Positions 1,060 to 57,425 of a stretch of 64,000 nucleotides of DNA are shown here, piece after piece. Under the pieces are notes generated by a model. It worked only from the letters and a program-made list of their open reading frames with translations, did no database searches and was not told the origin of the DNA. Source of the DNA: Escherichia coli (GTDB lineage: Bacteria > Pseudomonadota > Gammaproteobacteria > Enterobacterales > Enterobacteriaceae); NCBI RefSeq assembly GCF_030013595.1, contig NZ_CP122768.1; one strand, given 5' to 3'. The number at the start of each line of letters is the position of its first letter. Positions within the stretch are counted from its first letter, which is position 1. The position numbers were made by a program, and so were the translations under genes.

Positions 1060-2625
<1,566 letters not shown>

Positions 2626-2888: not shown

Positions 2889-14769
<11,881 letters not shown>

Positions 14770-15051
14770 TTAACATCTGTTGTTATTTTGCACGGTTTTT
14801 GTCGGGTATGGATTTGGCGATTGCTTCACAAATGCACACTTTCAGGGCAACAACTGCCTGATTTTTGGGCAAGATAATTAACGTTTTCGTATAGTAACAG
14901 AGTGAAAGTATTTTAAATCAAGGGATTAGATTTATGCTTTAATCGCAAATTGCGATCTAAATCAAATTAATCAGTTAAAGATAACCGCAGCGGGGCCGAC
15001 ATAAACTCTGACAAGAAGTTAACAACCATATAACCTGCACAGGACGCGAAC

Positions 15052-16572
15052 ATGTCTTCTCATCCGTATGTCACCCAGCAAAATACCCCGCTGGCGGACG
15101 ATACCACTCTGATGTCCACTACCGATCTGCAAAGCTATATCACTCATGCTAATGACACTTTTGTGCAGGTGAGCGGCTATACCTTGCAAGAGTTACAAGG
15201 TCAACCGCACAACATGGTGCGTCACCCGGATATGCCAAAAGCGGCGTTTGCGGATATGTGGTTCACCCTGAAAAAAGGGGAGCCCTGGAGCGGCATCGTG
15301 AAAAATCGCCGCAAAAATGGCGACCATTATTGGGTGCGGGCCAATGCGGTACCGATGGTGCGCGAGGGAAAAATCAGTGGCTATATGTCGATTCGCACCC
15401 GGGCGACGGATGAAGAGATCGCGGCGGTGGAGCCGCTGTACAAAGCGTTGAACGCCGGACGTACCAGTAAGCGTATTCATAAAGGCCTGGTGGTGCGTAA
15501 AGGCTGGCTGGGTAAACTGCCTTCATTACCGCTTCGCTGGCGGGCGCGTGGCGTGATGACCCTGATGTTTATCTTGCTGGCGGTCATGCTTTGGTTTGTT
15601 GCTGCCCCGGTGGTGACGTATATCCTCTGTGCGTTAGTGGTATTGTTGGCAAGCGCCTGTTTTGAATGGCAGATTGTCCGCCCGATAGAAAATGTCGCCC
15701 GTCAGGCACTGAAGGTGGCGACCGGAGAGCGTAATAGTGTTGAGCATCTGAATCGCAGCGATGAGCTGGGGCTGACATTACGCGCGGTAGGGCAGCTTGG
15801 CCTGATGTGCCGTTGGCTAATTAACGATGTCTCAAGCCAGGTGTCCAGTGTCAGAAACGGCAGTGAGACGCTGGCGAAAGGCACCGATGAACTGAACGAA
15901 CATACCCAGCAGACAGTTGATAACGTTCAGCAAACGGTGGCGACCATGAACCAAATGGCGGCGTCGGTGAAACAGAACTCTGCCACGGCGTCGGCTGCCG
16001 ATAAACTTTCTATCACTGCCAGTAATGCGGCAGTGCAGGGCGGGGAGGCGATGACCACGGTGATCAAGACAATGGACGATATCGCCGACAGTACCCAGCG
16101 CATTGGCACCATTACTTCGCTGATTAACGATATTGCGTTTCAGACCAATATTCTGGCCCTGAATGCGGCGGTGGAAGCGGCACGAGCCGGCGAACAAGGC
16201 AAAGGTTTTGCAGTGGTGGCAGGGGAAGTGCGTCATTTAGCCAGCCGCAGCGCCAATGCTGCCAACGATATTCGCAAGCTGATTGATGCCAGTGCTGATA
16301 AGGTGCAATCCGGTTCGCAGCAGGTACACGCAGCCGGACGGACGATGGAAGATATTGTGGCACAGGTGAAAAACGTCACCCAGTTGATCGCCCAGATTAG
16401 CCATTCAACGCTGGAACAGGCCGATGGGCTTTCCAGCCTGACCCGTGCAGTGGATGAGCTTAACCTCATCACCCAGAAAAATGCCGAGCTGGTGGAAGAG
16501 AGTGCGCAGGTGTCGGCGATGGTGAAACACCGCGCCAGCCGACTGGAAGACGCGGTGACGGTGCTGCATTAA
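15052..16572 (+). CDS. aer: Aerotaxis receptor Aer (506 aa)
   Basis: PAS domain N-terminus, central TM hairpin, HAMP and methyl-accepting signalling domain. Confidence 0.9.
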
Positions 16573-18390: not shown

Positions 18391-18825
18391 ATGTCTGGCC
18401 CTGCTGTCTCTTAATTGGTTGTGTAATTAATTGAAATTAAACAGGTAAATGCAATTTATTTTTTATCGATATGCCTTTTTGTATGCCTATTGGGAAAAAC
18501 ACGCTTTCTTCAACAGGGAATAAAAGCCGCTTTTATGGTGTTTTGAAACGGGTTTTAAAATGGCGCTCGTGGTGCTCTCGGGCACTCAATGGCGCTCTGT
18601 GATGTGGCTGGTGGTATGTGGCCGCCATGCATAATGGGGCTGATTTTGTTCATGGCCCGGCAGCGGGTGAGCATTTTTTACCATATTCAGGGTAAAAATG
18701 GGCGAAAAAGTTCATTTCTGGCATGGCCTGAAATGCCACGCAGCCCGCGCCGCGTGTGCTCTTGCCGGGGAAAACGGCGCGGAATAATGACCGCCACCCC
18801 ACCTTATGGCGGGCAGTCCCACGAA

Positions 18826-18905
18826 ATCCCGGTTATTTCCGTTTATTCCCGGATTAATCCCGCCTTCTCCCGCATTCTCCCGGCTGTTCCCGGAATTAAT
18901 CGCCG
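18826..18905. repeat. Iteron-like array of ~7 units (TCCCGG/TCCCGC, 10-11 bp period)
   Basis: aaatcccggttatttccgtttattcccggattaatcccgccttctcccgcattctcccggctgttcccggaattaat. Confidence 0.4.
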
Positions 18906-18916
18906 TGGGGTGGTGG

Positions 18917-19207
18917 TTATCTGGTGTGGTCGTAGTTCTGCCGTAGTCGTTCACCCTCAGCGCAATGACGCGGTTTTTTAACGCCGCTGGTAACGCAACG
19001 CGGGCAGGTCATGACGTGGCTGATATACGCATCACGGGCAGCCAGCCACGTCGCTGACGGGGCGCACATATCCGCCAGCGCCTGGCCGTTGCTGGTGGTG
19101 TTGTCTTCCGGCCATGTTTCGGGCTGGTGCGCTTCCGGTAAATCCGGTGCAGGTAATGCCCGGATAAACTCACACAATGCATCCGGCAGGCTGAATAACT
19201 TATGCAT
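18917..19207 (-). pseudogene. Probable remnant of a rep/helicase-like gene (96-aa ORF)
   Basis: Shares a ~40-nt segment (acatatccgccagcgYctggccgttgctg) and peptide motif SNGQ(A/T)LADM with the intact helicase gene at 20446-20490; no RBS. Confidence 0.3.
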
Positions 19208-19629
19208 AAATCTGATGTTCTGAATCGCTGAAAACGTGCGTTTTATGGCGTTTTTTCGTGATTTCTGCGTGTTCTGATGTGCTCATTTCGCTGTATCCCT
19301 TGTGTGGCGCGGGCTGCGCGTGTGTTTCGGTGTTCTTTTTTACCGCCAGAAAACGGTAATCAGGCATATAAACACGGCTGTAAGCCGCGCCGCGTCTGGC
19401 TTCGCGTGATTTTGTGCGTCAAAAAGTGCATTTTTGCCCTTAAAAAGCGTTATTCGTAATTCACTGGTAAATGCTCCGCAGGCCGCGCCATTGCTGGCCT
19501 TTTCGCTATTCTGTGTGGTTTTGCTGTTTAACCCGTTTTGCACACTAAAATTGCCTTGCATCCCGCGCCACGTAAGGGATTGCCGGGTTTTTATGTTGCG
19601 TTTTTTGCCGTGCGTAATATTGTGCAAGT

Positions 19630-19875
19630 TGGTGGGACTGGTGGGAACTGTGGGAACCGCCTAGAACCACGCGGCTTTCAGTGGTTCCCACCAGTTCCCA
19701 CGTTGGCTTTTTGTGGGAACCGTGGCGGTTATTTTTTGTTCTTTGCGGTTCCCACCAGTTCCCGCAGAGTTCCCACTCAAAAACGAACAATAATCATACT
19801 GATGGTTTTATTATTTACTGATTTATATATGTTTTATTTTTACGGTTCCCACAGTTCCCACCAGTCCCACCACTT
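19630..19875. repeat. Putative origin of replication: at least 11 GTTCCCAC/GTGGGAAC octamer iterons in both orientations flanking an AT-rich stretch
   Basis: Octamers at 19631, 19640, 19649, 19683, 19693, 19712, 19747, 19757, 19768, 19844, 19853; AT-rich tract 19776-19840; immediately downstream of the helicase gene. Confidence 0.6.
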
Positions 19876-19906
19876 TTTCAGTTTTTAAAAACGCAATTTT
19901 TGTGAA

Positions 19907-21745
19907 TTATTCATCAATTGCGAATAACAATGCATTCTGGCCGATGGCGTAAACGCGGTGTTTCTCCCCGTTAACGGAAACGCGTTTTGTGTATCGGCGT
20001 TTCCCGTCCGTGTCGCGGTCAACAATCGCGCCAGCATCGTCAAGACTGGCCGCTATGCGTTTCAGGTCGTAGCCGCTGGCCGCCTCACATAGTGCTTCCG
20101 GTAAAAACCAGTAAACCCGCTCGCCGTTGCTCCCCGGTCGCCACCATCCGGCGCGGGTGCTTACTGGTTCGCTGTATGTGCTGCCCCCTTCAAAGCGTGA
20201 AGCATGGCGGGCGATAAACCCCGCGACGGCCCGGAGTATTTTCACGTCCTCCGATTGCCCCCGCCCACGATAGTCCGCCCACGCATCAAACATCGCTTTC
20301 ACTGCCTCCAGTGCTTCGCCCTGTTTCCACGGCAGAATCCCGGCAGTTATCGCCATTTCCCCGGCCAGTGCGCACAGTGTGAAACGCGCGGCGGCGCGTG
20401 CCTCCTGTCCGGTGCTTACGGGGAATTGTTCGCGCAGTATGGCGTACATATCCGCCAGCGTCTGGCCGTTGCTGTCGGTGCTGGTGGTGTCACTTTCATT
20501 GCGGGAAATCAGCCAGCGCACAAACTCCGGCCCGGCGTGGCCGTAATGGGTAGCCGCATTACCGCGCAGTGTTTCGGCAAATTTCCGGCCTGCTCCCCGG
20601 CGTTCTGTGTCGTTGTCGGGGTTGTGGGGTAGTGCCATTCCGTGAAGACAGTCAAATGCCCCGTAAAGCCGCTGTGCCGGAATATCCAGTAACCGCATTT
20701 CCTGCCCGGCCTTGATGCGCTGGCCGCCGCTTTCCATGTGTTTACCCACGGTCATTTCCCCGGTGGAAATAATCATGGTGCGCCATGTGTTGACCGGGCG
20801 GGCCATGCCGGACACCTTGCCACGCTGACGGCCTGTTCCGTTGCCAAGCTGATAAATCAGCCCGCCAATATCTCTGGCCGGGGCTTCGCCAATTTCATCC
20901 AGTATCAGCGCGGTATCGTTCCGCATGGTTGCCAGCCCTTCAAGCCCGGTGCTGGTGGCGTTCCAGTTGCGTTTAAAGTTGCGGGGTTCTCCCCATACGC
21001 TACAGGCCACCAGCGCCCCCACGCTTTTCCCGCTGGAACTGTCGCCCATGAAATGAAATCCGCCGCTGTCCACATCAAGCAACCACAGCAACGGCCCGGC
21101 GAGCGATGCACACACGGCCAGCATGGTTACCGGGTTTCCCCGGCATAATGCGGCCACGTTGTCGCGCCAGCCCTCCGGCGTTCCTGCGGTGGCGTACTCC
21201 TGTGAGCCTGCTTCTGTTGACTGAAACACCACATCACCATCACCGATAACCCCGCCCGGCATGACAAACAGGGCCGGGGAGTGCCACCCGGTGGCCGTGG
21301 CCGCGAGCGCCCGGCGTTTTGGTGCTGACTCCATGATGTATTCAGTCAGTGCCTGCCGTTGTTTGTAGGGAATGGTAACGCCCATGCGTAGCAGTTCCTG
21401 CCGGAGTTCTCCGCCGTCTCCGGCGAGCATTTCCATCGGTGCGGCCCATTCCCGCCACTGGCCTGACGGCGTGAGAAAACGGAGTAATCGCCCGTAGTTT
21501 TCGTCTTTGCTGTCGCTGGTCATGGCGATGACCTCCAGCGGGGAACATATAAACGTGTCTGTGTTGGTTGAGTCGCGCACGCCGTGCCAGTAAAGGCCGG
21601 GTTTCAGTATCTGGCCGCCGTCCACCTGTACATGCTGCGAATAAGTGGCGTAGCCCGGACGCGCCGGGCTGACTTTGGGGTGTTTCTTGCGTGGTGGTTT
21701 TCTCTTCCCGGATGTGACCGGGGTTTTAGTGGTTGTCCGGGTCAT
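19907..21745 (-). CDS. Replicative helicase, P4-alpha-like/SF3-type (612 aa)
   Basis: Walker A (GDSSSGKS) and Walker B (ALILDEIGE) motifs; overlaps primase stop by 20 nt; followed by iteron origin. Confidence 0.75.
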   Translation of the reverse strand: MTRTTTKTPVTSGKRKPPRKKHPKVSPARPGYATYSQHVQVDGGQILKPGLYWHGVRDSTNTDTFICSPLEVIAMTSDSKDENYGRLLRFLTPSGQWREWAAPMEMLAGDGGELRQELLRMGVTIPYKQRQALTEYIMESAPKRRALAATATGWHSPALFVMPGGVIGDGDVVFQSTEAGSQEYATAGTPEGWRDNVAALCRGNPVTMLAVCASLAGPLLWLLDVDSGGFHFMGDSSSGKSVGALVACSVWGEPRNFKRNWNATSTGLEGLATMRNDTALILDEIGEAPARDIGGLIYQLGNGTGRQRGKVSGMARPVNTWRTMIISTGEMTVGKHMESGGQRIKAGQEMRLLDIPAQRLYGAFDCLHGMALPHNPDNDTERRGAGRKFAETLRGNAATHYGHAGPEFVRWLISRNESDTTSTDSNGQTLADMYAILREQFPVSTGQEARAAARFTLCALAGEMAITAGILPWKQGEALEAVKAMFDAWADYRGRGQSEDVKILRAVAGFIARHASRFEGGSTYSEPVSTRAGWWRPGSNGERVYWFLPEALCEAASGYDLKRIAASLDDAGAIVDRDTDGKRRYTKRVSVNGEKHRVYAIGQNALLFAIDE

Positions 21746-22769
21746 GCTCCATTTCCCATAGCATCAAATCGTTAAAGTCGGAAAGGTCTGGTGATGCACC
21801 GGGCGGCCATTCCGGGAATGTGACGTAACACCCGGCCAGCAATGCGGCTTCGTTGGCTGCTCTGGAACCGGGGTTATCTTTTGATGCCCGGTCATCATCC
21901 CCGGCGATAACGAGAGATATGCGCGAGCCGTATCGCTCACGCAGCGCCATAGCCACATGTTTAAGGTTTCCCGCATTCATGGCACACACCACGGCCATGA
22001 CGTTCCAGTACTGGAGAAGGGCGGCCCCGGTGGCCCACCCCTCACACACGTAAACGTCATGTTCCGGCGCTTCCGGGGCCATCAGGTCAAAGCTCCCCAT
22101 AACATGGAAAGCCCCCTGCACCTGACCATCACGGAGAAACATTTTTCGACCGTCCGGGCTGATAATCTGCACGTTCACCACTTCGCCGCATACGTTGTAC
22201 AGCGGGACAAGCAAATCATTACCTGACTGATACAGATTGCCGGGCTGTAGCCGTTTTTTCATGAGATAGGGATGAGAAGGGTTTGCCACCTCCGCCCGGC
22301 CAAGCAACTCAAAGGCCCGGCAGGCGGTCAGTTTCTGGCGCTGGTGGCGCTGTTGCTGTTCCCGCTGGCGGAGTCTGGCCGCCTCCTGTTCTGCGGCCTG
22401 TACCCGCACCCGTTGCGCCTCCCGTTGTTCGCGGGTCATTACATCAGGTTTGCCCAGCGCGGGCAGGCACAGCCCCAGCCTGTCCGCCACAATACGGGCG
22501 GCATCAGTCTGCCGCACATTCCATAAATAAGCCCCCAGCGCCACAAGGTCGCCGCCGCTGTCCCCGGTGGCGAAGTCGTGCCAGCATCCGTCCACCAGCG
22601 AGACGGAAAAACTGCCCGCGTGACGGTCTGCACGCGTGGGGTTACGACACACCCATTCAGTGGCCTGCCGTTTACCTTCGGGCAGCCATTCGGGAACAAG
22701 GATTTCTGCATGTTGTGCCGCCACTGCGGCAACGCTACGGATTGCGTTAATCGTGGCTATGTCACGCAT
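21726..22769 (-). CDS. DNA primase with zinc-binding and TOPRIM domains (about 347 aa from MRDIATIN start)
   Basis: Zn-binding region C..HAGSFSV..GCWHDFATGDSGGDLVALGA; TOPRIM motifs VYVCEGWATG and LVIAGDDD; start chosen at ATG 22769 overlapping upstream stop (ATGCGTGA); longest ORF extends to 22919. Confidence 0.7.
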   Translation of the reverse strand: MRDIATINAIRSVAAVAAQHAEILVPEWLPEGKRQATEWVCRNPTRADRHAGSFSVSLVDGCWHDFATGDSGGDLVALGAYLWNVRQTDAARIVADRLGLCLPALGKPDVMTREQREAQRVRVQAAEQEAARLRQREQQQRHQRQKLTACRAFELLGRAEVANPSHPYLMKKRLQPGNLYQSGNDLLVPLYNVCGEVVNVQIISPDGRKMFLRDGQVQGAFHVMGSFDLMAPEAPEHDVYVCEGWATGAALLQYWNVMAVVCAMNAGNLKHVAMALRERYGSRISLVIAGDDDRASKDNPGSRAANEAALLAGCYVTFPEWPPGASPDLSDFNDLMLWEMEHDPDNH

Positions 22770-23076
22770 GTTGCCCGTCCTCCCTGATTTCCCCGGTGCG
22801 GCAGCGCCAGTTATACGCCTCCACAACCTCACTGAATCCGGCCACAAGTTCAGCCGTAACAGCGATGGAATCGCCCAGGCTGCGTAGTTCATTTGGACCA
22901 AGAGCATTATTGTCGCCAATTACCGAAAGTAGCCGCCCTGTGCCAGCCAGCGCATCAAGCAGTTTGCGGGCGCAGTAATCCGCATCATCAAACATTGCGC
23001 GGGCTTCCTGTGCGTCTGCGTTTTTGATGGCCGCAACCAGTAGTTCAGGTATCCGGGTGTTATACATATCACGCAT
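22762..23076 (-). CDS. Hypothetical small protein (104 aa)
   Basis: ORF MRDMYNTRIPELLVAAIKNADAQEARAMFDD...; start overlaps upstream stop and stop overlaps primase start via identical CATGCGTGA junctions. Confidence 0.5.
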   Translation of the reverse strand: MRDMYNTRIPELLVAAIKNADAQEARAMFDDADYCARKLLDALAGTGRLLSVIGDNNALGPNELRSLGDSIAVTAELVAGFSEVVEAYNWRCRTGEIREDGQHA

Positions 23077-23365
23077 GGCTTACCTCCCCGGCCTGCTGGT
23101 CGTAACACTCCATCAGTTCGGCCATACAGCCAATGAGGGCAGGGGCTGTCTGTAGAAATCCGGCTAACTGGCAGATCTCGTCTCTGGAATAGGTGATGGG
23201 GTTTTCGCGTAACTGGCTTTCCTCCAGTGCCTTACCAACAAAGGCAATCCCCGCAAGTAAATTCACTCTGTGCCAGTCTGCATCAACGCGCAGACTCCAG
23301 CGGCTTTCTTCGTCCGGCATACTGCTCATGGCGGCTTTCATTGACTCACGCAGACAATCACGCAT
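23069..23365 (-). CDS. Hypothetical small protein (98 aa, start at internal Met MRDCLRES)
   Basis: ORF linked to neighbours by the same CATGCGTGA stop/start overlap; longest ORF extends to 23446. Confidence 0.45.
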   Translation of the reverse strand: MRDCLRESMKAAMSSMPDEESRWSLRVDADWHRVNLLAGIAFVGKALEESQLRENPITYSRDEICQLAGFLQTAPALIGCMAELMECYDQQAGEVSHA

Positions 23366-23555
23366 GACGCACCCCCTGAGCCGGAACGCGGCCAGCAAAC
23401 AGCAACACAAAATCACGCGCCAGCATACGGCGGGCGGTTGTTTCATCGGGTGCGTTGACGGATTCGCGGTGTGGGCGGTCGTTCAGGTCGGAACGGCGAA
23501 CAGCCAGAAAGTGAAAGGTAAATTCAGGGTGTAACGGGGTTGGGGTCGTAGCCAT
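23358..23555 (-). CDS. Hypothetical small protein (65 aa)
   Basis: Strong Shine-Dalgarno AAGGAGG 8 nt upstream of ATG at 23555; the longer 201-aa ORF has junk-like composition upstream of this Met. Confidence 0.5.
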   Translation of the reverse strand: MATTPTPLHPEFTFHFLAVRRSDLNDRPHRESVNAPDETTARRMLARDFVLLFAGRVPAQGVRHA

Positions 23556-23582
23556 TCTGGCAGCCTCCTTTTGCAAATTTAA

Positions 23583-23621
23583 GGAGTCACCGCCTGAGTT
23601 CCTACACTCATAAGGGGCGGT
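23583..23621. promoter_or_regulatory. Inverted repeat GTCACCGCC-N21-GGCGGTGAC upstream of the small-gene operon (candidate operator or 5' hairpin)
   Basis: Perfect 9-bp inverted repeat 26-70 nt upstream of the 23555 start codon. Confidence 0.3.
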
Positions 23622-23744
23622 GACGCTGGCAGGGGTAGGAATACCGGCGCAAAAGGAAACCGGCCAGCCTTTCGGCTGCCCCACCAGCGCCACCATAGAT
23701 ACAGTGCGGGTCTTGCCGCTGTGCATGGGTGCGCGATGGCACGA

Positions 23745-23775
23745 CACAAAAAAAGACGCTGGGCGCGTCTGTGTC
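23745..23775 (-). terminator. Rho-independent terminator downstream of alpA
   Basis: Minus-strand agacgcgcccagcgtct hairpin followed by TTTTTTT. Confidence 0.45.
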
Positions 23776-23981
23776 GCCTTTTGCTCATTAAACGGGTTCC
23801 TACGCCCGGCTGGTGGATTTACACCAGCGGGGGAAATATAACGCCCACCAGCGATGGCAGGCAAGCAATATTTGCGGTTGCCGCCCATCCCGTGGGGCGT
23901 GTGGTGGTTGTTTTGGGCGTGAGAACGCCCCGGCCCTGTTACGGGCCTTTCTGGCATTTTCATAATGATTATCGCGGTTGG

Positions 23982-35016: not shown

Positions 35017-35924
35017 AACGCGCTCCGGGTGTGAGACAGATTTTCAAAGGTGAGATCGGCATGAACCAGCAGTGTGCCGCGACGATGCGCCCAGCAGCCT
35101 GTAGAAACAGCAACGCCGATGGTTGACGGATGGCGGGCGGCAGATTCGATATGTACGCCCATCACTGAACTGTTACCAGTCAGCCCTTGTGGACCAATCC
35201 CCAGACGGTTGAGTCCTTCTTCCAGGCGTAGCTCCAGCTCTGCCGCTTTTGGATTTGGATGGCGGCTGCCAATCGGGCGCAAAATGGCTTTACGCGAGAG
35301 CACTGCGGCGGTTTCCACCGAGGTGGCGATGCCCACGCCTACCAGTACCGGTGGACAGGCGTTTACGGCGAGGGTGGAGATATTTTCGAAGACGAATTTC
35401 ACCACGCCTTCGTATCCTTCCGACGGCATTAACACTTTCGAGCGGCCTGGTAGCGTGCAGCCGCCGCCTGCCATGTAAACTTCGATTTCCGCATCGTCAC
35501 CGTCGGGGACGATATCCCAGGTGACCCACGGTACGCCGCTGCCGGTATTTTTGCCGGTGTTCACTTCGTCAAAAATTTCCACCGCGTTGTGGCGCAGTGG
35601 CGCTTTGACGGTTGCTTCTTCCACAGCTTGCTTAAGAATGCTTTGCAGCTCGCCAAGCAGCGGGAAACGGGAACCGACTTTAACGAAGAACATAATCTCC
35701 CCGGTGTCCTGACAGGTAGGACGATTCAGGTCGATTGCTTTTTGCATGTTGTCGAACATCGTGTGGTAGATGATTTTCCCCATCGACGACGTTTCGGCAT
35801 CCTTTAGCTGTTTTAGTTTATCCACCACGTCATCGGGCATTCGGGTAGAAATCATGGCGGTAAAGTTAGCGACAATCTCCGTCAACTTATTCACTGCCTG
35901 TTGCTTATTACTTTCGCTCATCAT
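35013..35924 (-). CDS. ttdA: L(+)-tartrate dehydratase alpha subunit TtdA (303 aa)
   Basis: Start at [14 protein letters not shown] (internal to the longer ORF); Fe-S hydro-lyase family. Confidence 0.85.
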
Positions 35925-46968: not shown

Positions 46969-47385
46969 CCGGAAAGCGTTTCACAGATCTCGCTTCGTAC
47001 CTGGCAGGCCTATTGACGCTGTTGTTTTTTCAACCTAGAGTAAAGGAACAAGGGTAAGGGAGGATTTCTCCCCCCTCTGATGAGTTGTTAGTAAGTCGGG
47101 AAACTTAACAGTAACAACACAACCAGTATGATGACGAACTTCATCATAACCCTTTCCTTCTGTAAGGCCCCTTCTTCGGGAGGGGCTTTCCCGTTTCAGC
47201 CCCTTGCTGACTTCCCGATTGTTGATGAACGCCGGACCCCGCGCAATGCTTACCCAGAGGCAGTTTTGCCTTCCCCGAGCGGTCACGCAAAATGCTGCAA
47301 CAGCCCGATCATTTGCACTTTTTATCGGAACGCAGATATAAAGAATCCCCGGCTTTTTGGGCCAGGGATGTTCATAGTTGAAAAT

Positions 47386-49047
47386 TTATTCTACGTTTTC
47401 GGCGACGGGAGTTGTTGAGGTTAAGGGTGAAGTCAATGCCGCCAGCGAGCCGCCAGAAACACCGATTTCATTGAGCAAGGAGTCAATCAGTGGTGCCTGT
47501 GTGCGGTAAGAGAGTGCGGCAGACAATGCCTGTTCTGCCAGGTTTCCGCCACTAACGCTGCCTGATGCTGCATCCCCCGCAGCACCACCTCGGTTTAATC
47601 CATCGACCTGAATAATCTTGATGCCGTCGATAGACTTCATCGGCTCAACGGATTTCTCTATTACTGCAGGTAACGACTGTAATAGCGCCAGTTTGAATTT
47701 AAGGCTGGTTTGTTCATCAGAAAGTACGTTGATAGCGTCGTTCAGCGCACGTTGCGCTTCTGCTTCCGCCAGACCCTTTTTACGCGTAGCTTCGGCTAAC
47801 TCAACGATTGCCGCCGCCTGCATCTCTGCGGCTTCTTTCTCTGCTTTCGCCCGCACGGTCAGTTCAACCGCTTTGGTTTCTGCATCCTGCGCGGCAGCGA
47901 TTAGGGCAACTTGTTTAGCACGATCGGCTTCTGCGGTCTGGCGAGTTGTTTCTACGTTTTGCTGGGCGCTTACCGCTTCTGCAAGTGCAAGGTTGGCACG
48001 CGCTTCCGCTTGTGACTGCTGTTCCGATTTGGCGGCAATAGCGATCGATTTCGTCTGGTTGGCGATTTCGGTGACCTGCTGCTGTTCGATCTCTTTAATG
48101 CGAACTTCACGTTCAGCTTCAACTTTTCTGGAACGGACGGCCTGTTCGCGGTCGATTTCCGTTTCCTGAATCTGTCGTTCAGCCAGAATTCGCGTCTGCT
48201 CTGCTTCCCGACGACGCTCGGCCTCAAAAGCCGCAATTTTCGCATTCTGCTCAGCGGTACGGGTTTTAACCTGCTGCTCCTGCTCAAGCGTCATAAACGC
48301 TTCTTGTTGTTCAATCTCCAGCTTCCGCGAAAGCGCATCACGGTTTTTCTCACGCACCGCAACTTCTACATCCTGTTCAACTTCGTTACGTTCGCGACGA
48401 CGGCGCTCCGTCTCCTGCGTCAGCTTGGTTAAACCTTCGGCGTCAAAGGCGTTGTTAGGATTGAAATGTTCTTTCGACGTCTGGTTAAAGTTGGTAAGTG
48501 AAACGCTTTCCAGTTCCAGGCCGTTTTTCGACAGATCTTCAGCTACGGTATTTTGTACGCCCTGCACGAAGTTCTCGCGGGTATCCTGTAACTCATGCAT
48601 GGTCATTTGTGCAGCTGTTGCACGGAGGGCATCGACAAATTTATCTTCAACCAACATACGTAAGTCTTCAGGCGACAGGGTGCGTTGCCCCAGCGTCTGG
48701 GCGGCGGTGGCAATACCTTCCACTGACGGTTTTACCCGCACAAAGAAAGCGACAACGACATCGACGCGCATACGATCTTTCGTAATCAGGCTATCAATGG
48801 TTGAGCGGCTGACTTCCAGCTTCAGAGTATTCATATTGATGGGGATTATTTCATGAAAGATCGGCATCACGATTGCGCCACCGCTCATTACCACTTTTTG
48901 CCCACCTAAACCAGTACGAACAAAAGCTTGCTCTGCCGAAGCGCGACGATAGAGCCTGGCGAAAATAATTCCAATAATAAACAGAATGCATACGGCAATA
49001 ATCGCGGTAAACATCCAGGAGGGCACAGAATTAACAATATCATCCAT
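47386..49047 (-). CDS. yqiK: Flotillin-like inner-membrane protein YqiK (553 aa)
   Basis: N-terminal TM segment, SPFH/band-7 domain, long Ala/Glu-rich coiled coil. Confidence 0.8.
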   Translation of the reverse strand: MDDIVNSVPSWMFTAIIAVCILFIIGIIFARLYRRASAEQAFVRTGLGGQKVVMSGGAIVMPIFHEIIPINMNTLKLEVSRSTIDSLITKDRMRVDVVVAFFVRVKPSVEGIATAAQTLGQRTLSPEDLRMLVEDKFVDALRATAAQMTMHELQDTRENFVQGVQNTVAEDLSKNGLELESVSLTNFNQTSKEHFNPNNAFDAEGLTKLTQETERRRRERNEVEQDVEVAVREKNRDALSRKLEIEQQEAFMTLEQEQQVKTRTAEQNAKIAAFEAERRREAEQTRILAERQIQETEIDREQAVRSRKVEAEREVRIKEIEQQQVTEIANQTKSIAIAAKSEQQSQAEARANLALAEAVSAQQNVETTRQTAEADRAKQVALIAAAQDAETKAVELTVRAKAEKEAAEMQAAAIVELAEATRKKGLAEAEAQRALNDAINVLSDEQTSLKFKLALLQSLPAVIEKSVEPMKSIDGIKIIQVDGLNRGGAAGDAASGSVSGGNLAEQALSAALSYRTQAPLIDSLLNEIGVSGGSLAALTSPLTSTTPVAENVE

Positions 49048-49073
49048 TATTAAATTTCCTTTTGATTAATAAA

Positions 49074-49703
49074 TTACAATATTTGGGGCCAGGGATTGTT
49101 TTCCGCCAAATATCGCGTTGCAGAAAGTCGGCAAATAATTAACACTTTGTCTCCTTTAGTGAAAATTTTTCCTTCTTCAGGCTCCAGTAGTAAATAATGT
49201 ATTTGGCCAAATTGATCGGTGAGTTTTCCTTCGCAGGGATTACCTGAAGTGGCTTGATGACCGGTAATTAACGCCATGCTACCAATATATTCTTCTTCTG
49301 TAATAGCTGAGCTCTGGTCGCGTGGAATCCAGGGCGCAACTATTTTACCGGTATAATGCACCGCAATAATCGTAAACAGTAAACTGACAGGAACCACAAA
49401 CAGGTTCGAGAGTGGTGATTGCCAGACCATGATGCAGGTATGCTGCAACAGGATGCCAATAAGACCAAAAAAACCAGCCAGTAAGCAAAGAACGACGAGA
49501 GCTGGCAATCTTCCGATATTGAGATAATGAAGTGCCTGGCTAATATGACCTGTGGTTATGGAATCATAATGGTCAAGATGTGCATCAAGTGCACCGGAGA
49601 GCATGTGACCGCAGATAAGCGCAAAAATTTCTAAAAGGCCGATCAACAGTATAAAGGAAATAGCGAAAAGATAAGGGGTGTTATAGTCGGCGAATAAAAT
49701 CAT
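49074..49703 (-). CDS. yqiJ: Inner-membrane protein YqiJ (209 aa)
   Basis: Multi-TM ORF immediately downstream of yqiK. Confidence 0.8.
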
Positions 49704-49971
49704 ATGTCACTCCAATGTCCATTTAGTGACGCAATATTTACTTTAGGATAGTTTCCTTGCTTACATTTATCTTTGTTAATAATAACACATGTTAGAGAAG
49801 TTCTGGAAGAGAAAGTCTTTTAATATGGTTTTTTATTTTTCACTAAAAAGTGTGATCGGGGACAATATATTTACGCACGTTATGTTTAAAGGCACTACAC
49901 TGATTGGGGAATACTGAAATCAGAAAAAGCATATGGCCTTAAAAGGTATGCGATAACCGGAGGATGTGCTT

Positions 49972-50172
49972 ATGGATCATAGTCTTAATTCTTTAAATAA
50001 TTTCGATTTCCTGGCGCGTAGTTTTGCCAGAATGCACGCAGAAGGTCGCCCGGTCGATATTCTGGCCGTTACTGGTAACATGGATGAAGAACATAGAACC
50101 TGGTTTTGCGCACGTTATGCCTGGTATTGCCAACAGATGATGCAAACCAGAGAACTTGAATTAGAACACTGA
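49972..50172 (+). CDS. glgS: Glycogen synthesis/surface composition regulator GlgS (66 aa)
   Basis: [58 protein letters not shown]... Confidence 0.85.
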
Positions 50173-50177
50173 TATTA

Positions 50178-50200
50178 CGGGCCGTCTGGCCCGTTTTTGT
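50178..50200. terminator. Bidirectional hairpin terminator between glgS and ubiK
   Basis: acgggccgtctggcccgt hairpin followed by TTTTT. Confidence 0.5.
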
Positions 50201-50206
50201 GTTGCT

Positions 50207-50506
50207 TTATTCTGCTTTATCAATAGGCGGGATAGCCGGAGGAGATTGAAGATCTGCTACCGAATTATTGCGCGCTTCCAGTTCACTGATGCGCTGCTCC
50301 AGTAACGCCAGTTTTTCACGAGTCCGTAACAGGACTTGCGTCTGAACGTCGAATTCTTCGCGGCTTACCAGATCGAGACGCGTCAGCTGCGCTTGTAGGG
50401 TTTGGCGGATTTTTTTCTCCACATCTTCCCCGAACTCCCTGATTCCTTTAGGCATTGATTCGTGAACCTGGCGAGCGATTTGCTCAATTTTTTTCGGGTC
50501 AATCAT
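50207..50506 (-). CDS. ubiK: Ubiquinone biosynthesis accessory factor UbiK/YqiC (about 99 aa from MIDPKKIEQ start)
   Basis: BMFP-family coiled-coil protein; start chosen at internal Met. Confidence 0.7.
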
Positions 50507-50629
50507 TGTAGTTTCCCTGTACTGATAGGTGTTGAGTGCCATTGTAGTGCGATAAGGGTAAGTCATAAACCAGAATTATGTGAAGCTATGCGTTGCTGCC
50601 GCTAATCATTAGCGTTATAGTGAATCCGC

Positions 50630-50780
50630 TTATTCTCAGGGCGGGGCGAAATTCCCCACCGGCGGTAAATCAACTCAGTTGAAAGCCCGCGAGCGCTTTG
50701 GGTGCGAACTCAAAGGACAGCAGATCCGGTGTAATTCCGGGGCCGACGGTTAGAGTCCGGATGGGAGAGAGTAACGATTC
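50630..50780 (+). ncRNA. FMN riboswitch (RFN element) in the ribB leader
   Basis: Conserved RFN segments AGGGCGGGGCGAAATTCCCCACCGGCGGTAAA ... GGTGTAATTCCGGGGCCGACGGTTAGAGTCCGGATGGGAGAGAGTAACG upstream of ribB. Confidence 0.75.
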
Positions 50781-50879
50781 TGTCGGGCATGGACCCGCTC
50801 ACGTTATTTTGGCTATATGCCGCCACTCCTAAGACTGCCCTGATTCTGGTAACCATAATTTTAGTGAGGTTTTTTTACC

Positions 50880-51533
50880 ATGAATCAGACGCTACTTTCC
50901 TCTTTTGGTACGCCTTTCGAACGTGTTGAAAATGCACTGGCTGCGCTGCGTGAAGGACGCGGTGTAATGGTGCTTGATGATGAAGACCGTGAAAACGAAG
51001 GCGATATGATCTTCCCGGCAGAAACCATGACCGTTGAGCAGATGGCGCTAACCATTCGCCACGGTAGCGGTATTGTTTGCCTGTGCATTACTGAAGATCG
51101 CCGTAAACAACTCGATCTGCCAATGATGGTAGAAAATAACACCAGCGCCTATGGCACCGGTTTTACCGTGACCATTGAAGCAGCTGAAGGTGTGACTACC
51201 GGTGTTTCTGCCGCTGACCGTATTACGACCGTTCGCGCAGCGATTGCCGATGGCGCAAAACCTTCTGATCTGAATCGCCCGGGCCACGTTTTCCCACTTC
51301 GTGCTCAGGCTGGTGGTGTACTGACGCGTGGCGGCCATACTGAAGCGACTATTGATCTGATGACGCTGGCAGGCTTTAAACCGGCTGGTGTGCTGTGTGA
51401 GCTGACTAATGACGATGGCACGATGGCGCGTGCACCAGAGTGCATTGAGTTTGCCAATAAACACAATATGGCGCTCGTGACTATTGAAGACCTGGTGGCA
51501 TACCGTCAGGCACATGAGCGTAAAGCCAGCTGA
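50880..51533 (+). CDS. ribB: 3,4-dihydroxy-2-butanone 4-phosphate synthase RibB (217 aa)
   Basis: [45 protein letters not shown]... Confidence 0.9.
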
Positions 51534-51572
51534 AAATCGCTGCTTAATTTACTGTCTTAATCAAGAAACCGA

Positions 51573-51601
51573 AGTTGTAGCTGGCTTCGGTTTTTATTTT
51601 G
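51573..51601 (+). terminator. Rho-independent terminator of ribB
   Basis: aaaccgaagttgtagctggcttcggttttta hairpin plus T-tract. Confidence 0.5.
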
Positions 51602-51770
51602 CCCTGCTATGCAAGATGTTAATTCCGCTTCTCTTTCTATGAGAAAATTTCATTAATATCAGGCATTCTTTTTCATTATGATCAAAATCATATAATTGTT
51701 CCGTTATTATGCGACCATATGAATATATCCGAAAAAGGATATGTGAAATTTATGCGCTAAATGTTTAGTA

Positions 51771-51965
51771 TTGTTAAATATTAAGGGTAAAAGGATGTTT
51801 ATCGCCTGGTACTGGATTGTATTGATTGCTCTGGTTGTGGTGGGTTATTTCCTGCATTTGAAACGTTATTGTCGGGCGTTTCGCCAGGACAGAGACGCAC
51901 TGCTTGAAGCACGGAACAAATACTTAAACAGTACGAGAGAAGAGACAGCCGAAAAGGTAGAATAA
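51771..51965 (+). CDS. Small single-pass membrane protein (64 aa; start uncertain)
   Basis: ORF with one hydrophobic helix (FIAWYWIVLIALVVVGYFL) and basic C-terminus; not firmly identified. Confidence 0.3.
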   Translation: MLNIKGKRMFIAWYWIVLIALVVVGYFLHLKRYCRAFRQDRDALLEARNKYLNSTREETAEKVE

Positions 51966-52022
51966 GGCGTTAGTGAAGCTGGCAGAAGTTGTCCATGCGC
52001 TGGACAACTTCTGATGTTGCTT

Positions 52023-52796
52023 TTAACCAATTCCCGCCGTTTGTAGCAGCACTAAACTGAATCCCATCACTGACATTCCACATAGTACGCCATAGCTGGG
52101 GTTATTATTAGGGTCAATCTCTTTGGCGAGCGGCATTAATTCATCAACCGAGAGCGCCACCATAATTCCTGCAACCGCCGCCATGATTGCCGCCATGACC
52201 ACCGGGGAAATCATGCTACCGAGGATTAACCACGCCAGCACACCACCAAGAATTTCTGCCAATCCAGAAATCCCCGCCCAAAGAATCGCGGTGCGTTTAG
52301 AACCCGTTGCTGCATAAACCGGGCCTGCAACCGCCAGACCTTCAGGGATATTGTGCAACGCGACGGCCAGTGCGATGCCAAATCCCAGCTCCAGGTTGCT
52401 GCTCGCAGTGACAAAGGTGGCAATCCCTTCCGGGAAGTTATGCAGACTGATGCCGAGAGTGAGCAGAATGGCTGTGCGCTTGATCGATTTTGGCAACGGC
52501 TGCACCGATTTTTGCATTAAATCCTGCGGATGCGCATGTGGCAACATGCGGTCCAGGCCAAAATAGCCAAGCAGACCGAAGATAAACATTCCATAACCCA
52601 ACACAGGCGACATTCCTTCGGCGGCTAGTGCGGCAGGAAGCATTTCCATTAATGAGATGAGCAACATGATCCCCGCCGCAAATCCTAGCGAAAACGCCAG
52701 TAAGCGGTTCGAGGGTTTTTGCCCGAGAACGCCGAGAAACGCGCCAATAAACGTGGCTGCCCCCGCCAGTATGGTCAGAATGAGAGGTACTGACAT
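52023..52796 (-). CDS. zupT: Zinc transporter ZupT (257 aa)
   Basis: [25 protein letters not shown]... ZIP family; start at internal Met of the longer ORF. Confidence 0.85.
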
Positions 52797-52911
52797 CGAC
52801 AACTCCTTATAAATCTTCACCTTCAGGCAGATCGTCAAAATAACTGATGATCATCATCATTGTTATCCGGGTTCTTACTCCGCCGAACAAGCGTATTGTG
52901 AGGATATCAAA

Positions 52912-53727
52912 ATGACACCTTTAGTTAAGGATATCATCATGTCTTCAACACGTATGCCAGCATTGTTTTTAGGTCACGGTAGTCCGATGAACGTGCTGGA
53001 AGATAATTTGTATACCCGCAGCTGGCAGAAGTTGGGGATGACATTGCCACGCCCGCAAGCGATTGTGGTGGTTTCGGCTCATTGGTTTACCCGTGGAACA
53101 GGAGTGACCGCGATGGAGACGCCGCCCACGATTCATGATTTTGGTGGCTTCCCGCAGGCGCTGTACGACACCCATTATCCGGCTCCTGGATCACCGGCTT
53201 TGGCTCAGCGATTGGTTGAGCTGTTAGCGCCAGTACCTGTCACACTGGATAAAGAAGCCTGGGGCTTTGACCACGGTTCCTGGGGCGTGCTGATTAAGAT
53301 GTATCCTGACGCGGATATCCCGATGGTGCAGTTGAGTATCGACAGTAGCAAACCCGCCGCCTTGCATTTCGAAATGGGGCGCAAACTGGCAGCGCTGCGG
53401 GATGAAGGAATAATGTTGGTCGCCAGCGGTAACGTGGTGCATAACCTGCGTACGGTGAAGTGGCACGGTGATAGTTCACCGTATCCTTGGGCGATGTCGT
53501 TTAATGAGTATGTGGAAGCGAATCTGACGTGGCAAGGGCCGGTAGAGCAGCATCCTCTGGTGAATTATCTCGACCATGAAGGTGGCGCGTTATCTAACCC
53601 AACGCCAGAGCACTATCTGCCGTTGTTGTATGTGTTAGGTGCGTGGGATGGGCAGGAGCCAATTACCATTCCGGTCGATGGTATAGAAATGGGCAGTTTA
53701 AGTATGTTGTCGGTGCAGATAGGCTAA
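52912..53727 (+). CDS. ygiD: Extradiol-type 4,5-DOPA dioxygenase family protein YgiD (271 aa)
   Basis: LigB-family aromatic ring-opening dioxygenase motifs (LFLGHGSPMN...). Confidence 0.8.
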   Translation: MTPLVKDIIMSSTRMPALFLGHGSPMNVLEDNLYTRSWQKLGMTLPRPQAIVVVSAHWFTRGTGVTAMETPPTIHDFGGFPQALYDTHYPAPGSPALAQRLVELLAPVPVTLDKEAWGFDHGSWGVLIKMYPDADIPMVQLSIDSSKPAALHFEMGRKLAALRDEGIMLVASGNVVHNLRTVKWHGDSSPYPWAMSFNEYVEANLTWQGPVEQHPLVNYLDHEGGALSNPTPEHYLPLLYVLGAWDGQEPITIPVDGIEMGSLSMLSVQIG

Positions 53728-53734
53728 TAAAAGA

Positions 53735-53762
53735 ACCCGAAGCCAGAACGACTGGCTTCGGG
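53735..53762. terminator. Bidirectional hairpin between ygiD and dsbI
   Basis: cccgaagccag-aacgac-tggcttcggg. Confidence 0.45.
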
Positions 53763-53772
53763 TGTTGCTGAG

Positions 53773-54444
53773 TTAGCCTCTGATGATTTTAAGCGCCCAT
53801 GCGCCACTCATAATGACCAGCAGCACCAGACACATACCAAAAGCCAGCATACAAGCCTGAGCCATATTCATAAAATGCCATGGTGGTAGCAGATACCAGC
53901 CTTCAGATTGCTGATACATTTCCACAAACCACTGTTGCGTGCTGCTCAGTGTGACGCCATCAGGAACGATTGGTGCGTCATAGCCACAATCCCCGGTAGG
54001 CTTGAACCAATTTGGTGCCCACTGTGCCAGCGGCAGGTTAAAGGGAAAAGTTGGATCGGTAGAGCAACCCTGTACGCCAAACAGTGAATCGGGATCCGGA
54101 TTATGTACTGCATGGTGGATATCGTTCAGTTTGAGCGAAAACTTCAGTCCCAAAATGCTGCCGTAAAATGCCATCACGCAGCCAATTAGCTTTAGGATGA
54201 TGTTCTTTGGGTTGATCGCTGCAACCAATCCTCCAATAACCATCACAAACATGGCGTAGCGAATGTATACACATTGCTCACAGGGTGCCATGTAGAGATA
54301 GATCTGGAAGAAAGCGTGCGCCAGGATAATTAACGCGCCCATCGCAACGGCCATTAACAACCACAACAAGCGTTGCTCCTGCCATCTGACCAGTGTGTCA
54401 ACTGGTGATGTGCGAAGATCTTTCCACATTCCCTTAATACCCAT
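53773..54444 (-). CDS. dsbI: DsbB-like thiol:disulfide oxidoreductase DsbI (223 aa)
   Basis: Membrane protein with CEQC motif in first periplasmic loop; follows dsbL. Confidence 0.8.
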
Positions 54445-54458
54445 AGCCTGTTTCCCTG

Positions 54459-55127
54459 TTATTTGCTTGCTAACTCACGGATAAGGTCTGCCATCGCGTC
54501 GATGGATTTGATGCTCTTGGTGTAGATCAAGTACTTACCATTAACGACATAGGCTGGAACCCCCTGGATTTTGGCGACATCATAAGAGGCTTTCCATTTT
54601 TCCAGTGTTTCTTGAACCGCTGGTTCTTTCAGTGCCGCTTCAAAATCCGCCTGACTCATACCTGCGGCATCCAGACCGGTTTTGATAAAAGCAGCCGGAT
54701 CTTTACCGTCAGACCAGCGTTCTTTTTTGTCGTGATAAGCCGCGTAGTAGGCAAACTTGGCTTTCTTAAACTGAGAGTTAGCATCAAATAAGGAAATGCC
54801 TGCTGCTTTATCTTTATTGATCAAGACCGCAAAGACTTCGCTTGCTTGTTTGCCGTATTCACCTTTGGTTTCCAGATGGAACGGCGTGAAAGCAACGATA
54901 TCTTTCACTTTTTCCGATACCGGACCGGTAACCGCTTTGTCGTACTTGTAACAGAACGGGCAGGCGTAGCTGAATACCTTAATCAGCGTTTTGTCGGCAT
55001 TCGGAATAGGTTTTTCCAGAACCATGTAATCCGTGCCTTCGGTAAATGCAGAAGCGGTAAATGAAACAGCCAAAGCTGCGGTAAGCAGTATGGTTTTAAA
55101 TAGTGATGAGATCCCTAATTTCGACAT
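54459..55127 (-). CDS. dsbL: DsbA-like periplasmic thiol:disulfide oxidoreductase DsbL (222 aa)
   Basis: Signal peptide and thioredoxin-fold CPFC active site. Confidence 0.8.
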
Positions 55128-55144
55128 TTTTATTCCCTTCTTAA

Positions 55145-56941
55145 TTATTTGAACATCTGTTGTGGACGGACTAACAGTGCACGATAGTGAGTCTGATTGG
55201 GTTTATCTGACAGCACGTCGATTTCCACTTTCACTTCTTTGGTTTTGTAATCGATTTCGTTCAACTTACCGACGGTTGGCTGCCCGACATCGAACAAATG
55301 AATAGAACCACCGAAGCCAAACATGGTGTTACGGTCGGCTTGATATTCAATGATGGAGGTAATCGGGCTATAGAAATCGTAGCCACGTTCTTTACCGTAT
55401 TCCCACACTTGCTGAACGGTGCCTTTCTTCTCATCAATCTTATATTCCACAAAGCGGGAGTATTTCATGGTTGGTAAGGCAGGTTGTTCCAGATGACGCC
55501 CATCGCCATTATCAAAAATGGTGAGCGTTCCTTTGCTGGAAATCCAGGCGGTATGCTGGGTGTAGGTAAAGTCGAAGTCTGAGTTTTCGCACAGGCCATT
55601 TTCGTTACAGGTAATTGGCTTACCGTTAGCATCAACCGGTTTCAGCAGCTTGCTGGCCAGTGGTTTTTCCCAGCCTTTAGACGGCGCAAGTATCCATTTC
55701 ACTTGTTTATCACGACCAATTTTCACAACACCCTGGTGACGAGAAGAGAGGATGATTGAGTCGTCTTTTGCGTCATAGGCGATGGAGTTGACGTGTGCCC
55801 AGTTACGCCCTGGTCCTACACCCAGCGCGTCGCCAAATGGTGTGTCTGGTTCCAGTTTGGCCTGTTGTCCTGCATGGGCAAGGTCAACGTTAACGCAAAC
55901 TGCACCTGCATCCAGCGCGCCGAGCAGTGCATCGCGTTTCGGATCGAGGATCTTGGTCAGATCCCATACATCGACAACGCGACCAGATTTATCGACTTCG
56001 AGGATATGGTCACGAATGGTGGTGACGTGTACGCCGTCATCGCGACGGTAATTGCTCTTACCTACGCGCAACAATACTGTGCCATTAGGCGTCTCAATGG
56101 ACTCATGAGTGGCGTCAGCAAATCCGCGCGGTAGTTTGTGATCTTCGAGCACCTGCCCCATCATGTCGAACTCGTACCAGTGCTGACCTTGTACAGCGGT
56201 AAAGGTGCCGCGTGGCGTTTCACGGATGCCCATCAGATAACCACGCTTGTTGATATCGCGGTCACGACCATCGTAGAAAGTGTCTTGATCCAGCCACCAG
56301 CGGTATTCACCTTCGGTATCGACGATGAAAGTAAAGGGCGCGATATCAAAAGGTAGTGCGCCGGTTGCCGGACCCGCATCAAGGATACCGGCATTTTTAT
56401 CTTTCTCACCATGCCAGTGGAGATCGGAACCTTGGGCGGTAAAGGTGTGGGTATTAACCAGATAGAGGCGATCTTCAAAACCCGGTGCGACTTTAATAAC
56501 TTTGGTCTGTTGTAAATCGGAGATAGAGCGGTTATCCATGTAATTATTGACGATGGCCGAAGTATGCACCACATAATCATCTTTCATGACCTTGCCGTTT
56601 TCTTTCCACTCAACGGTCACTTTGTTAGCAAATTTCTGATAAAGACCAAAAATCGGTACACCATCGTAAGTTTTTAGTGATTCCTGACCCACGGGATAGC
56701 TGATTTCTACGCCTTTTTCGCCCTTCCCATGGACGGTAACTTTGACATCAGAAATGACATGGCTATCTAAGTCAACCAAAGCGGTCAGTGGTGCATTGCC
56801 GTAGGGATCGACAATGACCGCACCCAGTTGCCCGGCAGGTGGTGCGGGTTTAAAACCTGCTGCCATCACCCCCGGTGCTGACAAACCCAGAGTTATCGCC
56901 ACAGCTCCGGCTACCAGAGTTTTTCTATATTTATCAAACAT
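55145..56941 (-). CDS. assT: Periplasmic arylsulfate sulfotransferase AssT (598 aa)
   Basis: Signal peptide and beta-propeller-like arylsulfotransferase sequence; first gene of assT-dsbL-dsbI. Confidence 0.85.
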   Translation of the reverse strand: MFDKYRKTLVAGAVAITLGLSAPGVMAAGFKPAPPAGQLGAVIVDPYGNAPLTALVDLDSHVISDVKVTVHGKGEKGVEISYPVGQESLKTYDGVPIFGLYQKFANKVTVEWKENGKVMKDDYVVHTSAIVNNYMDNRSISDLQQTKVIKVAPGFEDRLYLVNTHTFTAQGSDLHWHGEKDKNAGILDAGPATGALPFDIAPFTFIVDTEGEYRWWLDQDTFYDGRDRDINKRGYLMGIRETPRGTFTAVQGQHWYEFDMMGQVLEDHKLPRGFADATHESIETPNGTVLLRVGKSNYRRDDGVHVTTIRDHILEVDKSGRVVDVWDLTKILDPKRDALLGALDAGAVCVNVDLAHAGQQAKLEPDTPFGDALGVGPGRNWAHVNSIAYDAKDDSIILSSRHQGVVKIGRDKQVKWILAPSKGWEKPLASKLLKPVDANGKPITCNENGLCENSDFDFTYTQHTAWISSKGTLTIFDNGDGRHLEQPALPTMKYSRFVEYKIDEKKGTVQQVWEYGKERGYDFYSPITSIIEYQADRNTMFGFGGSIHLFDVGQPTVGKLNEIDYKTKEVKVEIDVLSDKPNQTHYRALLVRPQQMFK

Positions 56942-57425
56942 GGATATATCTCCTTATATAACGCAAATATATAATAATGATGAATATCGACTGTTGAGGT
57001 GGTGCTAATAAATTTGTTTTGTGAATTAAAATGTATTAATAATAATCGTTATGAATATTTTTTACTGGTTTTAGATTTTTTGTATTTCTCTGTAACAAAT
57101 ATTTTCTTTTGGTCGATACTAGGTGGGCAATATATCAATAACAATATTCAATATTGTGTAGTGTGATCCCAGCGACATTGTTTTTTAATTATTAAATCTA
57201 TTTTTGATGCGGTGTTGGATATAAATAAACTTATAAAACAATAGGTTACCAAGTGATTTTATTGATTAATTTAATTACAGTATCGCTTACATATGACGAT
57301 TTAATATTAAATTAGGAATTAATGTTAAATAAAAGTGATGGATGTGATTGATTATATATAGATGGGGGTGATGATTTGCGAAGTATAATAAATTGCCCCG
57401 GTAAACGGGGCAATATTGAACAGTA
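56942..57425. promoter_or_regulatory. ~480 bp strongly AT-rich intergenic region upstream of assT, including the ygiC terminator hairpin (~57392-57413)
   Basis: Very low GC with curved-DNA-like A/T tracts; hairpin ttgccccggtaaacggggcaa next to the ygiC stop. Confidence 0.4.

Follow-up and report, generated by a model that had tools for sequence, protein, structure and literature searches.

The stretch of Escherichia coli DNA analysed here (64 kb in length, hereafter the window) carries the genes glgS and ubiK (also named yqiC) tail to tail, with one hairpin inside the 34-bp spacer that separates their stop codons. A preliminary description of this DNA had placed the two genes directly side by side, 34 bp apart at 50173-50206, and both the open reading frames and the RefSeq annotation bear this out; the annotated borders of glgS and ubiK come from a strain that is identical to the window over 1 kb at this place. 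On the glgS side the gene order continues with yqiJ, itself preceded by yqiK (minus strand), and on the ubiK side with an FMN riboswitch and ribB. The features of the locus are the following:

49074-49703, minus strand: yqiJ, a flanking gene common to the window and K-12
49972-50172, plus strand: glgS, surface composition regulator GlgS, 66 aa (open reading frame and RefSeq annotation)
50173-50206: intergenic spacer between the convergent genes glgS and ubiK, exactly 34 bp
50177-50194: hairpin ACGGGCC-GTCT-GGCCCGT, 7 pairs (6 of them G-C) and a 4-nt loop
50177-50204, plus strand: predicted intrinsic terminator of glgS, the hairpin at 50177-50194 with the T-run TTTTTGTGTT (terminator scan)
50207-50506, minus strand: ubiK (yqiC), 99 aa, the long-tail allele, very probably ancestral
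50628-50776, plus strand: FMN riboswitch 5' of ribB (Rfam RF00050, 120.9 bits)
50880-51533, plus strand: ribB

GlgS matches the Pfam family PF08971 over its entire length (residues 1-66 of 66; E 1e-45; 153.9 bits against a gathering cut-off of 32.2). UbiK is assigned to its family by a match to PF04380 (BMFP) over residues 1-78 (E 2e-27; 96.2 bits against a gathering cut-off of 37.2), together with its position divergent from ribB and its synteny with ribB and the FMN riboswitch. No consensus promoters were found in a scan of positions 49700-50900.

The hairpin starts 4 nt past the glgS stop codon and 12 nt past that of ubiK. Its predicted fold reaches -17.5 kcal/mol on the plus strand (z -3.96; 1 of 200 shuffles as good) and -17.0 kcal/mol on the minus strand (z -5.0; none of 200 shuffles as good). 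Read in the direction of glgS, a GC-rich stem-loop comes just after the stop codon and is followed by a U-rich tract (TTTTTGTGTT), and by these predicted features it is a canonical Rho-independent terminator for glgS, which it presumably serves as in the cell. Read in the direction of ubiK, the stem is followed by AAUAUCAG, with no U-tract, and the terminator scan placed no site on the minus strand; here the hairpin would be at best a weaker stem-loop. The earlier label of a bidirectional terminator is thus appropriate on the glgS side, where stem and U-tract are both present, and too generous on the ubiK side, where there is a stem-loop without a U-tract.

Eleven sequences from four genera have an identical stem (CGGGCC/GGCCCG) and differ in the loop. 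Covariation was considered as a test of pairing, and with the stem core invariant in all 11 sequences it speaks of conservation only, neither for nor against pairing. The 34-bp spacer is found with 0-3 changes in four other Escherichia species, and in K-12 the hairpin stays with glgS, between yqiI and glgS. As in intrinsic terminators of convergent genes, a single GC-rich hairpin stands between the two stops, here with a stem kept across genera; in two Citrobacter species this hairpin is symmetric, with an A-tract and a T-tract, and looks truly bidirectional, whereas E. coli has the U-tract on the glgS side only.

Comparison with K-12 and the UbiK tail

In the annotation of K-12 MG1655 the order of genes is ubiK, ygiL, yqiG (split by IS2I, insC5/insD5), yqiH, yqiI and glgS, and the preliminary description was therefore right that a chaperone-usher operon and an IS element occupy this position in K-12 (ygiL-yqiG::IS2-yqiHI, between ubiK and glgS). 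When the window is aligned to MG1655 by blastn, positions 47911-50203 match the glgS side and positions 50276-53727 the ubiK side; between window positions 50203 and 50276 lie 6,637 K-12-specific bp (5,301 bp once IS2 and its GTTAT target duplication are subtracted), and the two genes are not adjacent in K-12. Without IS2, the K-12 island has a GC content of 40.2%, against 52% for the window. The window has a short segment of its own in place of the island:

50204-50275, minus strand: segment swapped for the island in K-12, 72 bp, consisting of the last 23 ubiK codons and 3 nt

These limits are based on the ends of the blastn matches (50203 and 50276), on the alignment, and on a query break at position 504 in island-bearing genomes.

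A tblastn search with the K-12 proteins found no homologue of YgiL, YqiG, YqiH or YqiI, and no IS2, anywhere in the 64-kb window; subunit, usher, chaperone and adhesin genes are all missing between ubiK and glgS, and the junction is contiguous. The earlier statement that the ygiL-yqiGHI cluster and IS2 are absent from this DNA accordingly stands, as does the view that the strain is not K-12, given that the window has neither the island nor the IS2::yqiG junction. The combination that marks the K-12 lineage (IS2I in yqiG, with the GTTAT duplication) is not found in the window, and over most shared blocks of the 64 kb the two sequences differ by about 1.4-2.6%. None of the Clermont phylogroup markers is located in the 64 kb.

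The exchanged segment alters the UbiK protein itself, which is the same in the window and K-12 through residue 77 and different after it. The last 23 ubiK codons of the window are matched in K-12 by 20 different ones, such that window UbiK has 99 aa with a 22-residue tail of its own, and K-12 UbiK has 96 aa in total with the tail NRSTEIKKQPDPETLPPTL. The switch falls where the Pfam BMFP domain ends, which is also where the second predicted helix and the coiled coil stop (helices are predicted at residues 4-43 and 49-79, and a coiled coil at about 53-80). Because the island replaces the 3' end of ubiK, the length of UbiK tells the two states apart: 96 aa goes with the island, 99 aa with the empty site. 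The window tail matches those of other Escherichia, Citrobacter and Salmonella. Salmonella YqiC and window UbiK both have a PAIPP-type tail (the protein has 99 aa in the window and in S. Typhimurium, and 98 aa in the two subspecies examined), whereas the UbiK that has been characterised in K-12 is the 96-aa, island-linked isoform, whose residues 78-96 are unrelated to those of the window or highly diverged from them.

Other variable segments were observed elsewhere in the window. An 8.3-kb element at 18399-26709, absent from K-12, adjoins tRNA-ileX (ARAGORN: CAT anticodon, 26713-26788, minus strand) and encodes, on the minus strand, a tyrosine integrase (25250-26524), a 612-aa DUF927 protein (19907-21745) and a Toprim-domain protein (21726-22919); it resembles a small P4- or satellite-like integrative element. 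A UK pig isolate, HCP5S3_I2, has a different island of 27 kb at tRNA-ileX, with Ag43, CbtA/CbeA, a group II intron and a DNA methyltransferase/helicase cluster. About 710 bp of ttdA/ttdB (approximately 34915-35623) are present in the window and in K-12 and missing in HCP5S3_I2, where ttdB is annotated with 804 bp. Although HCP5S3_I2 is 100% identical to the window across the glgS|ubiK locus, the different island at tRNA-ileX and the 710-bp indel in ttd show that the window does not come from that strain. Between ygiD and ygiC (53728-57425) lie assT (55145-56941), dsbL (54459-55127) and dsbI (53773-54444), an aryl-sulfotransferase/disulfide-bond cluster that K-12 lacks and that LF82 and HCP5S3_I2 also have. 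Between ygjK and fadH, about 1.9 kb (912-2844) take the place of 223 bp in K-12 and include an open reading frame of 452 aa (1239-2597, minus strand) with no Pfam match. At 47013-47162, between yqiK and hldE, the window has one copy of the SIB RNA/ibs toxin-antitoxin pair, compared with two in K-12 (sibD/ibsD and sibE/ibsE); the island-bearing strains NCTC11129 and EC19 have two ibs genes each.

Occupancy of glgS|ubiK and of a second site, ribB|yqiD

The cryptic chaperone-usher operon ygiL-yqiGHI of K-12 fills exactly the glgS|ubiK locus that is unoccupied in the window, with the attendant difference between a 96-aa and a 99-aa UbiK. A second site in the same neighbourhood is also empty:

51534-51676: second empty site, ribB|yqiD, about 1.3 kb from the glgS|ubiK spacer

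Matches between the window and LF82, a B2 strain, stop at 51531 and resume at 51677. LF82 is empty at glgS|ubiK and carries a 5.6-kb, four-gene chaperone-usher operon between ribB and yqiD (the window segment 51534-51676 was compared with positions 10889-15863 of locus L030). The proteins of the LF82 operon have no tblastn match in the window, in which ribB, yqiD and zupT are contiguous, with no four-gene operon between ribB and yqiD. The B2-type and K-12-type operons are related, each consisting of four genes in the same neighbourhood and orientation, but they occupy different sites 1.3 kb apart. The LF82 usher is 56% identical to K-12 YqiG. Orthologues of the LF82 operon occupy the ribB|yqiD site in E. 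whittamii (usher identity 89%) and, with greater divergence, in Trabulsiella (64%). In B2-type strains the yqiD-side flank is only about 81% identical to the window. The B2-type operon at ribB|yqiD is probably the one known as the 'Ygi' fimbriae of CFT073.

The frequencies of these arrangements were counted in 5,426 complete E. coli genomes. A contiguous glgS|ubiK junction occurs in 2,062 of them (38%) and yqiH-yqiI of the K-12-type island in 3,356 (62%), in agreement with the preliminary view of a variable locus. The IS2::yqiG junction was found in 357 genomes, with K-12 derivatives (MG1655, C600, J53) as the best matches; IS2 is no general feature of the island and occurs in only a small group of genomes, K-12 laboratory strains foremost among them. 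At the second site, ribB, yqiD and zupT are contiguous in 4,426 genomes and the B2-type operon is present in 994. Both sites are empty in 1,079 genomes, as judged by a query spanning the two that is contiguous, and these include O157:H7, O55:H7 and O145 strains. Since 3,356, 994 and 1,079 together account for approximately all 5,426 genomes, the two operons are almost completely mutually exclusive, and about 20% of genomes, the window among them, have neither.

The polymorphism as such is already known from the fimbrial literature, and in that respect the locus is an ordinary variable one. Wurpel et al. 2013 found the Yqi and Yqi-like fimbriae to be closely related, clade-specific, placed at various locus positions and mutually exclusive (PMC3559732), with Yqi common in phylogroup B2 and Yqi-like associated with A, B1, D and E (PMC3559732), and the genome counts given above fit this mutual exclusion; the ExPEC adhesin I (EA/I) of Antao et al. 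2009 is B2-associated (PMC2771359). Judging from the phylogroup associations in these two papers, the K-12 ygiL-yqiGHI operon is apparently of the Yqi-like type, and the LF82-type operon is probably Yqi/EA-I (strain IMT5155), an assignment made by phylogroup association.

Polarity of the locus and origin of the island haplotype

A scan seeded with GlgS and covering 100,044 species genomes (one per species) returned 27 loci, a set that does not include E. fergusonii or S. enterica subsp. enterica. In E. albertii, E. whittamii and three further Escherichia species, as well as in nine Citrobacter, in S. enterica arizonae and diarizonae, and in three Trabulsiella, glgS and ubiK are adjacent and convergent, 28-73 bp apart. 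All of these outgroups have the CGGGCC/GGCCCG hairpin core with variable loops, and their UbiK proteins, of 94-100 aa, end in a window-type tail (...PPAIPPVDKAE or ...PAPAIPPVDPQE). In S. Typhimurium, yqiC has likewise been described as 'convergent to glgS' (PMC3107778). The adjacency, the hairpin and the window-type tail of the outgroups together indicate that the empty site with a 99-aa UbiK is the ancestral state and that of K-12 the derived one. The window is thus very probably an ancestral, never-occupied form of the locus, the operon having been inserted in part of the E. coli population. To call the operon absent, as was done at first, is correct in that it is not there, and misleading in so far as it suggests a loss: with all of these outgroups empty, "never inserted" is the better term, and "deleted" is unsuitable because no deletion could bring back the 72 bp of the ancestral form.

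The island haplotype differs from the window also in the sequence that immediately borders the insertion, in two zones:

50130-50198: glgS-side divergent zone, island haplotype about 19% diverged (13 differences in 69 bp)
50276-50378: ubiK-side divergent zone, island haplotype about 15% diverged (15 differences in 103 bp)

Between K-12 and the window, the 13 differences on the glgS side are preceded by 339 bp free of any difference (Fisher p 3e-10), and the 15 on the ubiK side are followed by 623 bp equally free of them (p 4e-6). Over nucleotides 142-231 of ubiK, K-12 is 86.7% identical to the window, compared with 90% for E. albertii and 92-96% for other Escherichia. K-12, NCTC11129 and EC19 have the same junctions and the same tail on their 96-aa UbiK, with yqiI genes that are 89-92% identical; common junctions and a common tail, despite operon genes that differ by up to 11% (yqiI), point to one insertion event.

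Alleles of yqiI, the adhesin gene of the K-12-type island, are deeply diverged (nucleotide identity 89-92%, from a comparison of locus L001, 9633-10697, with loci L034 and L035, 7252-8316); at the island's junctions and in its flanking genes, identity is 98.6-100%. Counted over genomes, yqiI falls into two identity classes, one of at least 99% (1,614) and one of 90-95% (1,757); the YqiI protein has no Pfam match.

No integrase and no tRNA is annotated within the island in MG1655, and a search for flanking repeats that bound it found only 8-mers at chance level between its ends (124 of 200 shuffles equal). By these features the K-12 insert does not belong among integrase- or tRNA-associated genomic islands. 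We propose instead that a diverged relative first acquired the operon between its glgS and ubiK genes, and that from this relative the whole segment would have passed into E. coli by homologous recombination, with crossovers in glgS (at about 50130) and in ubiK (at about 50378); the island haplotype would have entered E. coli once, and K-12 would later have gained IS2 in yqiG. Import by this mechanism and a single origin of the island haplotype are what the sequences most likely reflect. The proposal in its full form is that about 60% of E. coli, K-12 included, carry a chimeric ubiK with a foreign C-terminal tail, that the window has the native allele, and that a single import by homologous recombination, with crossovers in glgS and ubiK, brought the island from a lineage of Enterobacteriaceae outside the present sample, whose divergence is no less than that of E. 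albertii; we give this whole set of statements an even chance. In a stronger version, the two tail isoforms of UbiK would also differ in function, either within the UbiJ-UbiK complex or in how the protein associates with the membrane.

A candidate donor was sought in two ways. In the GlgS-seeded scan (27 loci), the operon occurs at glgS|ubiK only in E. coli-like contigs within three mislabelled metagenome-assembled genomes, L018, L028 and L029. These three, labelled as Collinsella sp. and Bacillota, contain the E. coli arrangement glgS-yqiI-yqiH-yqiG at 93-100% protein identity, and the E. coli contigs in them are likely due to binning contamination. A protein search with the C-terminal 47 aa of K-12 UbiK yielded no donor lineage: K-12-type tails were found only at identities of at least 95% and as short fragments. 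Otherwise that search returned ancestral-type tails from other genera, and among the matches listed truncated proteins of at most 83 aa prevail.

A different history would have the island arise inside E. coli, the two haplotypes being an ancient balanced polymorphism whose flanks diverged as recombination was suppressed near the indel. Such a history would suit the high frequency of both states (38% and 62%), the deep divergence of the adhesin alleles in the island (yqiI, 89-92%), and the failure to find a donor among the 27 scan loci or in a protein search that returned mostly fragments. We nevertheless regard it as rather unlikely, because the 15-19% divergence of the flanks exceeds the distance between E. 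coli and E. albertii over the same segment, all five of the five other Escherichia species sampled have the empty haplotype only, and the divergence ends abruptly at zones of 100% identity, as would be expected of a recombination tract. The start of the K-12 tail, ELENR, also occurs in an Enterobacter-labelled fragment, in several other sequences and in Trabulsiella, which again speaks against this history.

The conclusion that the window was never occupied must also be weighed against a secondary loss, in which ygiL-yqiGHI was once present in an ancestor of this strain and then disappeared, through deletion or because recombination put an empty allele from another strain in its place. The island is present in 62% of complete genomes, with the consequence that many lineages have island-bearing relatives all around them; recombination is frequent in E. 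coli; and the window is 100% identical to K-12 at 49791-50129 (glgS) and at 50379-51001 (ubiK to ribB), which shows that the near flanks have a recent common ancestry. Plain deletion, however, cannot regenerate the 72-bp ubiK tail, which in the window is nearly identical (a few substitutions) to that of LF82 and of other Escherichia species; the window has no yqi remnant or scar; and the hairpin loop and the 3' end of glgS are of the outgroup type, unlike those of the island type. Replacement by recombination is formally possible and would in any case install the ancestral allele. Altogether we judge a secondary loss improbable, more so than an old polymorphism within E. coli. That the adjacency is an artefact of assembly collapse or of a chimeric window can be dismissed: no point in its support was found, the identical junction is present in 2,062 complete E. 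coli genomes and in other species, and the window is 99.9% identical and collinear with HCP5S3_I2 over 26710-50000 (the end of the compared locus) and 100% identical to it over 49700-52200.

With the empty locus read as ancestral and the island as a probable import, what is added to the known polymorphism is its polarity, the linked swap of the UbiK tail, the signature of a recombination tract, and a strain in which both sites are empty. The practical value of this is modest, and no new biological question is opened by it. The junction can serve as a three-state typing marker (empty; K-12-type island at glgS|ubiK; B2-type operon at ribB|yqiD), and the length of UbiK, 99 or 96 aa, reports the first of these states, the empty glgS|ubiK site. 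The correction to the word "absent" means that it is the laboratory reference K-12 that represents the derived state. The UbiK tail of K-12 is not the ancestral one, which matters if results obtained with K-12 UbiK are to be applied to Salmonella YqiC or other E. coli, and the locus provides an example of an island without mobility genes that has apparently spread by homologous recombination in its flanks.
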